This document shows, piece after piece, positions 15,103 to 18,100 of a stretch of DNA of 64,000 nt. Under the pieces are notes generated by a model. That model was not told the origin of the DNA and did no database searches. It was given only the letters and a program-made list of their open reading frames with translations. Origin of the DNA: Eukaryota sp. GEM-RC1 (lineage: Eukaryota); assembly GCA_040285855.1 (NCBI GenBank), contig JAUFOQ010000005.1:1116001-1180000 (forward strand), written 5' to 3'. Positions within the stretch are counted from its first letter, which is position 1, and each line of letters starts with the position of its first letter. Both the position numbers and the translations under genes were made by a program.

Positions 15103-18100
15103 ATGAAAGAACATCAGTTCTTAACGCGAAGTACGTCGCGGGTCCTTAGTGGCCCCAGATGTACTTCAACTCTTTCTTATCTTCCTCTGTCTTTTGTACT
15201 CTCGAAAGAACATCAGTTCTTAAGGCGAAGTACGTCGCGGGTCCTTAGTGGCCCCGGATGTACTTCAACTCTTTCTTATCTTCCTCTGTCTTTTGTACTC
15301 TCGAAAGAACATCAGTTCTTAAGGCGAAGTACGTCGCGGGTCCTTAGTGGCCCCAGATGTACTTCAACTCTTTCTTATCTTCCTCTGTCTTTTGTACTCT
15401 CGAAAGAACATCAGTTCTTAAGGCGAAGTACGTCGCGGGTCCTTAGTGGCCCCAGATGTACTTCAACTCTTTCTTATCTTCCTCTGTCTTTTGTACTCTC
15501 GAAAGAACATCAGTTCTTGATTTTTCCTGTGATTTCGATGGACGCTTGTGTCCTGAGATATCTGTTTTTGTTTTGTTTCTCTTATAGAATTTCTTGTCGT
15601 CATTCTTCAAAAGAACATCAGTTCTGGTTTATTCCTACGATTTCGATGGACGCTTGTGTCCTGAGATATCTGTTTTGTTTTGTTTCTCTTATAGAATTTC
15701 TTGTCGTCATTCTTCAAAAGAACATCAGTTCTGGTTTATTCCTACGATTTCGATGGACGCTTGTGTCCTGAGATATCTGTTTTTGGTTTGTTTCTCTTAT
15801 AGAATTTCTTGTTGTCATTCTTCAAAAGAACATCAGTTCTGGTTTATTCCTACGATTTCGATGGACGCTTGTGTCCTGAGATATCTGTTTTGTTTTGTTT
15901 CTCTTATAGAATTTCTTGTTGTGCTTGTTGTATTATGTTCTTGTTAAAAACCAAAATAAATCTCCAGTCATCACAATTTCTTCGTGATTTGACTATCGAC
16001 GGGGACATTGAGTCTAATCCTGGACCCGATCTAATTGAAAATCATTCCAATATTGATTCTTTGCTACCTCATAGTTGGTTATGGAACACTATTGTAGACT
16101 TTTATGGACAGTACATCACTGAACATAGTGTTAAATGTTCATATCTCTCGTGTGAAGCATTGTCACTTGCAATAACAGAGGACAATTTGGCTGAAGAAGA
16201 AAGAGATCGTTGGCATCTTCACAAATTATTTCAAGACACCTTAGATTTGATGAATTCTTCCAGACCACCACCCAAACAATATTTGTTGATTCCAATAAAC
16301 GATGGTATCTTTAATAATGAAGCTACTCACTGGACTCTGTTGATTTGTGATATTAAGAGAAAAAGATACTATTCCCTTGATCCAATGTTTACTCAAAATC
16401 AACATCAAAAGTTTTCAGATACTTTAGGTCGTTGCGAAGATGTTATAACAGAATTTCATGAGCGTGTGTTTTTTCCTTTCAATTATCATTATTTAGGAAG
16501 GCTTTTTGTAACTCAACACCAAACACAAGGTGACTGTGGACCATTTATTTTAGAGTACATGAGTAAATTTGTTGAATTTGAACAAACGTCACTAGATATC
16601 AACGTAATTTTAAGTCCAGTTCGATTGTTCAATGAATATGATGCTCTAAAAATGAGGAAAAGAATTTTGAATCTCATCATTGACACTCACACTGGTCAAC
16701 ATCGATCTGTTGCTCAACAAATTTTAAATTCAATCTTGTCTGGAGAAATAGTACAACAAACAATCGAAGTTCAACAAACAACTCAAGTTTCTACTGATAG
16801 AAGAAAGACACAATGTCCCAAAACTAATCAACCTGCTGGAAAAGAAATAAATCATCTGACACTTCTGAAAGTACTACACTTAAGTCATCTCGTCGTAAAA
16901 CTCTAGAAGTAACTAATAAAATTTCATCAAGTTATTCTTCTTCATCTGACACATCCGTCAAAAACTCTAAAGCACGACGGCTAGAACGGAAACCAAAAAA
17001 GTGTCATTCGTCAGAAATTCATCGACCACAAGAACAAGGTTCTAAACGTCAACAGAGACTGTATAATCAATCTAGTGGTTGTACAAAATTTCCAAAAACT
17101 GACGAAGAATGTCAAAGTTCGCAAGTAGTTGAAGGTTCAACTGATTCTTTGCATGAATTTCCTGAAATTCCAGTTGTTAAAGGAAAAAAGGAAAAAGAAT
17201 CAAGAATTCCATTTATTGACATTGCAACTGATACTGTTGTTGATGACTCCCTTCCTACAGTTTTTATAATTGATATTGAAACAAGAAATATCAATGAGAG
17301 AATTCCTACACGAGTGAACAAAGAATTGAATGAACATCGTAGAACGGAAAAAGAGTCTTTGAAACAGAGAAGATCTCTAATGAATGATTTTGAGAAAGAA
17401 GCTCACGATCTTGATTTTCTCGCAGATCAACAAATCATCATGATCTCTGTCATTATTGCAAAACTACAACCCAATGGTGAGTTACAATTTGACAACTCAA
17501 TCGTCCTTTACACTGACTACAATTATAAAATCAAATTTGGTGAATCAGAAACACCAGCTTTTCAATTAGATCTTTTGGACTTCCCAAATGAAAACGAATT
17601 ATTGGTTAAGTACGCTAATATTGTTGGTCAATATAAACCAAATGCTTTTATTGGCCATAATATTTTCAATTTTGATTTGCCCATAATTGACAATAGAATG
17701 TGGGCTCTTGACCTTCCTCTTTTAACAAATCCAAATCCAATTGAGTTACCTTTACATAGTAGATGGCTGGATATCATAAAAGATCACAATGGTTTTACAG
17801 TTTTGGATACCTTCTTATTTGCAAAGAAGTATATTGGTCTCAAGTATGGTTGTAGTCTAGCCAATTTATCTTGGAATTTACTTTCTGAGCCTAAATTGAA
17901 ATTGGATAAAGACTTGGATCACTTACTCCCAGTTGATTGTTTAAGAAGTGATAAAAGAATGAAAACTCAAATCAACTACTGTCTTCATGATTCAATTTTG
18001 GCGTTTAAATTGTTTATTTTATTTCAAAAAGACAAAATTGTTTTTCAATCATGGGCTTCTATTAAAACTTCAGTTGTTAGTGTAGTAAAACATCAAGAAG

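Follow-up and report, generated by a model that had tools for sequence, protein, structure and literature searches.

A Fanzor1 variant with an N-terminal family-B-type proofreading exonuclease in a multi-copy element of Eukaryota sp. GEM-RC1

Fanzor1 enzymes are RNA-guided nucleases whose guide, according to passages of PMC13565253, is the element's own right flank, and which, as stated in parts of PMC10432273, cleave the non-target strand 14–17 nt from the target-adjacent motif (TAM). What they do for or to their hosts is described as still open in the same passages of PMC13565253, where homing through cutting and repair is the favoured idea. Here we describe a Fanzor1 variant with a second nuclease, encoded in a 64,000-nt stretch of contig JAUFOQ010000005.1 of Eukaryota sp. 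GEM-RC1 (the 'window', within which all positions are counted; the fusion open reading frame, ORF, lies on the + strand). This protein places a family-B (DEDDy) 3'–5' exonuclease directly ahead of a complete Fanzor1 and lacks any polymerase part, and the fusion is real, conserved and apparently undescribed; its anatomy is set out below, and a function is proposed from it.

The new protein resembles the solved Fanzor1 enzymes (SpuFz1, PDB 8gkh/9ceu; PpFz1, 9cf0; GtFz1, 9cer) in its complete fold, which extends from the initial WED strand through the zinc finger, in a RuvC-II glutamate six residues ahead of that zinc finger and in a predicted structured region of about 80 nt past the stop codon, and it has the D-E-N triad of GtFz1. 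Unlike them, it has a 260-residue N-terminal exonuclease, a 2A/Ulp1 polyprotein layout, no terminal inverted repeats (TIRs) that could be found and a long-stemmed branch of its own. Family-B proofreading exonucleases (Pol delta, alpha and epsilon, RB69/T4 gp43, E. coli Pol II, HSV UL30) display the same D-E-D-Y-D residues in ExoI, ExoII and ExoIII, a layout also shared by free-standing PolB-exonuclease-like proteins, whereas here the polymerase palm, fingers and thumb are absent and a two-helix insert follows ExoI. The MCi-2 Fanzor1 elements of Mucor circinelloides (PMC3627910) likewise combine a variable 5' part with a conserved 3' Fanzor, lack TIRs and a complete transposase, and show 11–12 bp duplications (ATAATT + 5–6 N) resembling the candidate described below, which comes from one copy; an exonuclease, a 2A peptide and a protease go unmentioned in the main text of that paper. 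A functional parallel is found in homing of the T4 td intron, in which, as portions of the sources describe, an endonuclease (I-TevI) cutting away from the insertion site is aided by 3'–5' exonucleases. By analogy the fusion protein likely works in a similar way, with separate phage exonucleases and protein targeting in T4 in place of the one chain and predicted RNA targeting here.

No natural exonuclease–Fanzor fusion is described in the literature searched, supplements, most subscription papers and Repbase lying outside its scope, and the word 'exonuclease' has no occurrence in the main texts of the Fanzor papers examined, whose supplements may list domain layouts. 2A peptides are known in non-long-terminal-repeat retrotransposons (parts of PMC3708506), the consulted portion of PMC12338488 mentions neither transposons nor Fanzor, and a 2A/Ulp1 polyprotein layout is unusual for a Fanzor element. 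The fusion is a natural counterpart of hand-built nuclease–exonuclease fusions, available as unbroken full-length models (P0023, P0035, P0185).

An exonuclease joined directly to a whole Fanzor1

The fusion is carried by a stop-free frame of 1135 codons (16828–20235, +) that holds the motifs of both nucleases, from ExoI to the zinc finger. ExoI (FIIDIET, starting at 17263, with catalytic D at 17272 and E at 17278), ExoII (GHNIFNFDLP, 17653, D at 17674) and ExoIII (YCLHDS, Y at 17977, D at 17989) are followed in it by RuvC-I (YVDIG, 19444, D at 19450), RuvC-II (NDERNTSS, 19990, E at 19996) and a C4 zinc finger (TSS-K-CPEC, 20005–20028, with CPEC at 20017, and CKSEHC at 20125), so that a motif search of this frame bears out the original prediction that the three Exo motifs are in frame with the Fanzor RuvC. 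In terms of domains, a Ser/Lys-rich linker (16828–17250, +) precedes the exonuclease (17251–18027, +), identified by Pfam, sequence, fold and model evidence, and a complete Fanzor1 (WED/REC/RuvC/zinc finger, 18043–20306, +). An AlphaFold model of 17239–20154 (mean predicted local distance difference test score, pLDDT, of 82, low around ExoIII) places the two folds side by side: model residues 2–263 align to PolB exonucleases and residues 268–972 to the three solved Fanzor1 structures, SpuFz1 residues 18–599 being aligned by model residues 269–972. The Fanzor fold begins at residue 268–270, some five residues separate the end of the exonuclease from the equivalent of SpuFz1 residue 18, and the family profile puts the first GtFz1 residues at the same junction. 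That no polymerase palm follows the exonuclease, as had also been predicted, is thus supported by the model alignment, which shows no palm, fingers or thumb and leaves no room for them between the two folds, and by Pfam, which lists no polymerase catalytic family for the whole frame 16828–20235.

The sole Pfam match of this frame is PF03104 (DNA_pol_B_exo1), at 49.6 bits and E 4.3e-13 against a cut-off of 23. Judged by the DEDDy motifs (ExoI DxE, ExoII NxxxFD, ExoIII YxxxD), compared against Pol delta, the domain has all five residues, D-E-D-Y-D. Modelled by itself (pLDDT 73.9, with values below 50 at residues 216–245; predicted template modelling score 0.75), it adopts the RNase H-like DnaQ fold, and its top 16 fold matches among 48,161 chains are all family-B polymerases (Z 13.5–16.5), with root-mean-square deviations (rmsd) of 3.0–3.6 over 160–191 residues; the folds of ExoI, DnaQ, TREX1 and RNase T score below these (RNase T Z 11.7; ERI-type Z 10.8–11.7). 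An exonuclease profile match, suggested as a check when the domain was first noticed, is accordingly present both in Pfam and as a fold match to PolB exonucleases. The best sequence match is Pol delta (E 3e-11), and viral PolBs match likewise. More than one donor of the domain is conceivable, its nearest neighbours in the ESM Atlas being not Pol delta but small stand-alone bacterial proteins of 180–214 aa (score 0.92, 158–162 of 256 features in common); no longer exonuclease relatives were found in a search limited to proteins of 1573–4490 aa, which says little on the donor.

Within the domain, a two-helix insert rich in charged residues follows ExoI (17320–17425, +; model helices 28–46 and 50–62), is seen in all six representatives covering that region, and may touch Fanzor or DNA. 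Among divergent representatives (nine proteins 26–43% identical within the domain, eight of which cover each column), the five catalytic residues are retained in 8/8, 7/8, 8/8, 7/8 and 8/8 cases; the two ExoI counts take in one misaligned fragment, without which both stand at 7/7. The other 32 D/E positions have a mean conservation of 22% in the same representatives, with one of the 32 invariant. Judged from these alignments, the exonuclease active site looks kept, and activity is predicted.

On the Fanzor side, the part after 18091 matches SpuFz1 (E 9e-14) and PpFz1 (E 1e-13), which are the only two of 177,635 PDB sequences to match with an E value of 1 or less. Foldseek comparison with the three Fanzor1 structures gives E values of 6e-22 to 5e-17 and a WED/REC/RuvC/TNB fold with an enlarged REC, and structural alignment gives Z 17.4–23.4 over 499–561 residues (rmsd 4.3–5.3). 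The C-terminal Fanzor1 motif defined by Bao and Jurka (2013, PMC3627910), D-X(125-275)-[TS][TS]-X-X-C4 zinc finger-X(5-50)-RD, is present with RN replacing RD; RN, which sits past a frameshift in this copy, is the variant found in GtFz1, whose WNRN aligns with the family. The RuvC-II glutamate lies six residues ahead of the zinc finger (NDERNTSSKCPEC), and its relocation to this position is given as a Fanzor1 trait in passages of PMC13565253.

The original prediction had further held that no frame correction was needed, which stands from ExoI to the zinc finger and fails for the whole protein, as RuvC-III, the C-terminus and the start are all out of frame. A one-base shift in a purine run near 20165–20185 puts the natural C-terminus, together with RuvC-III (YWNRNK, whose N is at 20217, +), in a second frame, which reaches its stop at 20304–20306. 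At the other end, the first ATG of the fusion frame (17380) is downstream of ExoI, so that ExoI can come only from the upstream 2A–Ulp1 frame (15803–16906), from which the fusion frame is displaced by a single base near 16840, within the linker. Relatives are in frame at both breaks (P0011 at the C-terminus, P0051 and P0187 for 2A–Ulp1–exonuclease). A host gene of the window, encoding a PP2A B'' subunit (9611–11265, +), served as a control for assembly indels: it has a one-base frameshift near 10920, its halves match residues 2–211 and 210–285 of 4i5j, and an intron was rejected since these halves meet at residues 210–211. Because the relatives are in frame, the PP2A B'' gene is split alike, and the named relatives' genomes are based on nanopore reads with short-read correction (parts of 10.1101/2023.05.03.539051), both frameshifts in the window copy are probably assembly errors.

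Distribution of the fusion and the element that carries it

Other copies of the fusion are known from protein models and not from DNA. The nearest cluster comprises 18 proteins, of which the 15 listed are all labelled Eukaryota sp. GEM-RC1, and five aligned GEM-RC1 proteins are 90–93% identical across the frame; a second cluster of 11 proteins (TZLM1-RC) shows about 47% identity. A search of 1.84 billion representatives contributed more distant members, which lie among the best 150 of its 692 matches at E up to 0.001; the labels looked up for ten of them were TZLM3-RCL (seven), TZLM1-RC (two) and GEM-RC1 (one), reportedly strain names of skoliomonads, anaerobic metamonads of soda lakes. Among the 64 proteins of the family, with the window copy counted in, 23 combine both domains, under three species labels, and the fusion persists down to 25–32% identity in these three skoliomonads; the other 41 are partial, six with the exonuclease only and 35 with a Fanzor match that starts inside Fanzor. 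The possibility that the fusion would be absent from all other copies, raised at the outset as a sign of a chimera, is met by these many copies, four of which (P0023, P0035, P0184, P0185) run unbroken from ExoI to RuvC-III.

The fusion is also confined to this family among the proteins compared. A profile of the exonuclease finds 29 proteins at E below 1e-16, all family members, and a profile search detects no such domain in the 134 other proteins of the search, mostly Fanzor1 (best E 0.4). In an unrooted tree of 110 C-terminal regions (no outgroup; outside proteins of at least 500 aa only; six family and five other rows without the anchor left out), a branch with an SH-aLRT (Shimodaira–Hasegawa-like approximate likelihood ratio test) support of 100 and a stem of 1.12 separates the 12 family rows from all others. 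Pairwise identities of the exonuclease and Fanzor domains co-vary (Spearman 0.43, permutation p 0.03, eight representatives), in line with a single old fusion as far as such sequence comparisons reach. The two domains are adjacent in every model that spans both, whereas models differ in which other cargo they have and in how it is arranged. Searches of viral contigs and of metagenome contigs yielded no related locus, and an ESM Atlas query with full-length P0185 gave no usable match.

The fusion protein belongs to a multi-copy mobile element of polyprotein layout. Its 5' region is likely represented, by position, by two tandem arrays found by repeat search (99 bp x 4.2 and 108 bp x 3.9; 15105–15919, +). 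These are followed by a putative ribosome-skipping 2A (StopGo) peptide (15968–16027, +) ending in DIESNPGP (16004), which fits the 2A motif D(V/I)ExNPGP and holds an NPGP that recurs nowhere else in the window in any of the six frames, and then by an Ulp1-family (C48) cysteine protease (16076–16663, +; PF02902, E 3.7e-10) with H, D, Q and C motifs present. In all eight relatives that have a 2A-like motif, canonical in four and with H replacing E in the other four, it lies upstream of the exonuclease, and in none between exonuclease and Fanzor; because 2A never falls between them, the element could part proteins yet keeps its two nucleases joined. The order at the front varies, from 2A–Ulp1–exonuclease in a single chain (P0051, P0187) through Ulp1 tail–2A–exonuclease (P0026) to 2A–exonuclease (P0007, P0044, P0196). 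In P0184 (2027 aa, TZLM3-RCL) a DEAH-box helicase stands ahead of the linker, exonuclease and Fanzor, as captured cargo or a merged gene model.

Directly after the stop (20306), a multi-hairpin omegaRNA scaffold of about 80 nt is predicted (20307–20388, +), after which the guide would come; the SpuFz1 scaffold is of similar length, 75–80 nt (passages of PMC10432273). Windows of 80–120 nt near the stop fold with z of about -2.0 to -2.2, uncorrected for the 56 windows tried; folding of 20240–20560 as a whole is unremarkable (z -0.8), and Rfam has no match in the predicted scaffold. The candidate ends are a 12-bp putative target-site duplication whose left copy (15041–15052) marks the candidate left end and whose right copy (20377–20388, 11/12 matches) closes the predicted omegaRNA. 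It is the only 12-mer with one mismatch or fewer common to 15031–15104 and 20307–20460, and one such 12-mer or more arises in 4.5% of random windows (n = 400), a share that falls to 0.75% if the comparison is confined to the first 25 nt, a limit set post hoc. Similarity to a host paralog stops at 15045, and an empty site assembled in silico by joining the flanks scored 93 against this paralog, vs 92 for the left flank by itself and with 144 of 500 random flanks its equal, so the ends are not confirmed. A single 9-mer is the only trace of TIRs between 13831–15110 and 20301–20810, and lies away from the candidate ends; no inverted match between these ends and no Helitron2 RepHel protein was seen, and 3' hairpins are present. 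No transposase family rose above cut-off in the scanned family models or beside the window copy, PF03400 at E 0.02–0.03 falling on the RuvC region.

A proposed mechanism and its rivals

That a lineage keeps a proofreading exonuclease welded to its cutter points to a step after the cut. Of the three functions first proposed for the domain, trimming of target-DNA ends fits best on the sequence evidence, and we give about an even chance to the reading that the protein is a one-chain enzyme that cuts and then trims in aid of homing. The predicted omegaRNA would guide RuvC to the empty site, where it would cut and leave a TAM-side end bearing 14–17 nt of right-flank DNA; this tail would not match the filled allele, in which the TAM is followed by the element itself. 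Being displaced in the R-loop and single-stranded, the tail would offer a free 3' end, the type of substrate on which a proofreading domain acts. The tethered exonuclease would remove it, as needed before copying can finish, and host repair would then copy the element into the break. The site of attachment, judged from the model, is compatible with such a role: the fused domain would sit at the WED N-terminus near the TAM-proximal start of the heteroduplex, where SpuFz1 H21, T22 and K25 contact the first guide–DNA pair or the guide backbone beside the TAM (parts of PMC10432273). Precedents, as given in portions of the cited papers, are the T4 gp43 proofreading exonuclease and DexA, which affect degradation, efficiency and co-conversion in intron homing (PMC2988022, PMC12153337), and the proofreading activity of yeast Pol delta, which shortens invading 3' ends by as much as about 40 nt and is able to remove a tail that lacks homology (PMC9477423, PMC10868807).

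Several observations weigh against this proposal. In one yeast assay, as reported in part of that literature, proofreading-dead Pol delta left the outcome unchanged, and trimming is not generally needed in cis, because the 134 other proteins do without the domain. The model, of low pLDDT around ExoIII, is silent on the reach of the domain. The omegaRNA, the TAM and the element ends come from one copy (fold z about -2; a duplication expected by chance at 4.5%). Restorative homing needs excision, for which no transposase domain was found, and homing by itself leaves spread to new loci unexplained. The window copy has its two frameshifts, and a shift at the C-terminal site, in two different frames, is seen too in five of the six listed GEM-RC1 models extending that far, so that decay or slippage is also possible.

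Among other uses of the same anatomy, the exonuclease might erode both cut ends so that no rejoining follows, with deletions or the loss of a target such as a rival element or virus. The domain layout would be identical, and engineered TREX2–SpCas9 fusions exist (parts of PMC13370227). We nevertheless find this rather unlikely: because a Fanzor1 guide comes from the element's own flank, it would by default target the empty site in the host itself, and deletions there would not spread the element; moreover, neither an array nor a foreign guide turned up around the gene. Unlikely, and ranked after it, is a service to transposition in which the exonuclease trims donor or element ends for an enzyme acting in trans and Fanzor only directs it to element-related DNA or is a mere fusion partner. 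An accessory role for DEDDh nucleases is reported in the P and piggyBac elements (PMC3627910), other cargo is present (Ulp1, and the helicase of one model), and no transposase was found in cis; yet exonuclease and Fanzor remain adjacent in all spanning models while this cargo varies, and their identities co-vary. More doubtful again is maturation of the guide, the trimming of a read-through omegaRNA 3' end to a guide of 15–20 nt, which was among the roles in the original prediction and appears the less likely for the nearest folds being DNA polymerase exonucleases and the junction lying at the N-terminal WED strand. The guide end has to be processed and DEDD enzymes include RNases such as RNase T and the ERI type, but these rank below the 16 family-B polymerases and Pol delta is the best sequence match, the domain is attached on the TAM-proximal side, far from the guide 3' end, and mature guides arise in other Fanzor1 proteins lacking it (passages of PMC11423790 and PMC10432273).

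A different alternative is that RuvC has lost its third aspartate and is dead, leaving the exonuclease as the only nuclease, brought to DNA by an RNA-guided binder. The third residue is N in 20 of the 21 family proteins that show the motif (among the 134 non-family proteins, N in 10, D in 102 and 22 unread), and the RuvC-I DPG, kept in TZLM3-RCL members, has drifted in two subfamilies, to DIG in the window copy and DLG in TZLM1-RC (SpuFz1 has DPN). A dead RuvC was our initial reading of WNRN, dropped on the evidence that GtFz1 cuts with N at this position and that SpuFz1 D606N cuts better (Xu et al., parts of PMC11423790). With D-E-N the triad of an active enzyme, RuvC-I D and RuvC-II E retained in all three species, and an exonuclease that requires a free end, a dead RuvC is very improbable; the exonuclease probably adds to RuvC because the triad is that of active GtFz1, and the earlier suggestion that it substitutes for RuvC is disfavoured by the same residues. 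Least credible of all, and barely so, is a chimeric assembly or chance read-through of adjacent genes: one-base frameshifts do occur in the window, a host gene included, but junction sequence and spacing are conserved across three separately named genomes at 25–50% identity.

Returning to the enzyme that cuts and then trims, a bolder extension would dispense with a transposase altogether, one RNA-guided protein cutting AT-rich sites and trimming 3' ends with its own polymerase-derived exonuclease, and host repair copying the whole element with a duplication of about 12 bp. This is improbable as it stands; if true, the element would home under RNA guidance on its own resources, from a polyprotein that with its 2A peptide and protease is laid out like those of viruses.

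Other features of the window

Upstream of the element, an insert of about 670 bp (13108–13779) with TGACCTGACC-type repeats in both orientations lies apparently inside repeated host sequence, of which an uninterrupted paralog is found at 38346–38468 (reverse); it is possibly a small non-autonomous element, and Rfam gives weak microRNA-like matches only on its repeats near 13150. Pfam matches neither of the ORFs of 272 and 112 aa in the adjoining segment 11946–13127 (+), the 112-aa ORF being related to the repeated sequence at 38410–38468. A protein of 704 aa, kinase-like by eye at its N-terminus, is accompanied by two tandem partial copies spaced by about 1.3 kb and by an inverted full copy, 91% identical, the whole set occupying 27489–32192 (-) and 55295–57403 (+). 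Downstream of the element, an ankyrin and DHHC palmitoyltransferase gene (20809–22575, +) runs across three frames, one of its breaks resembling a short intron and the other a frameshift. Finally, a pair of 20-bp inverted repeats (14167–14186 and 14466–14485) flanks 280 bp with several ACACGTGT palindromes.

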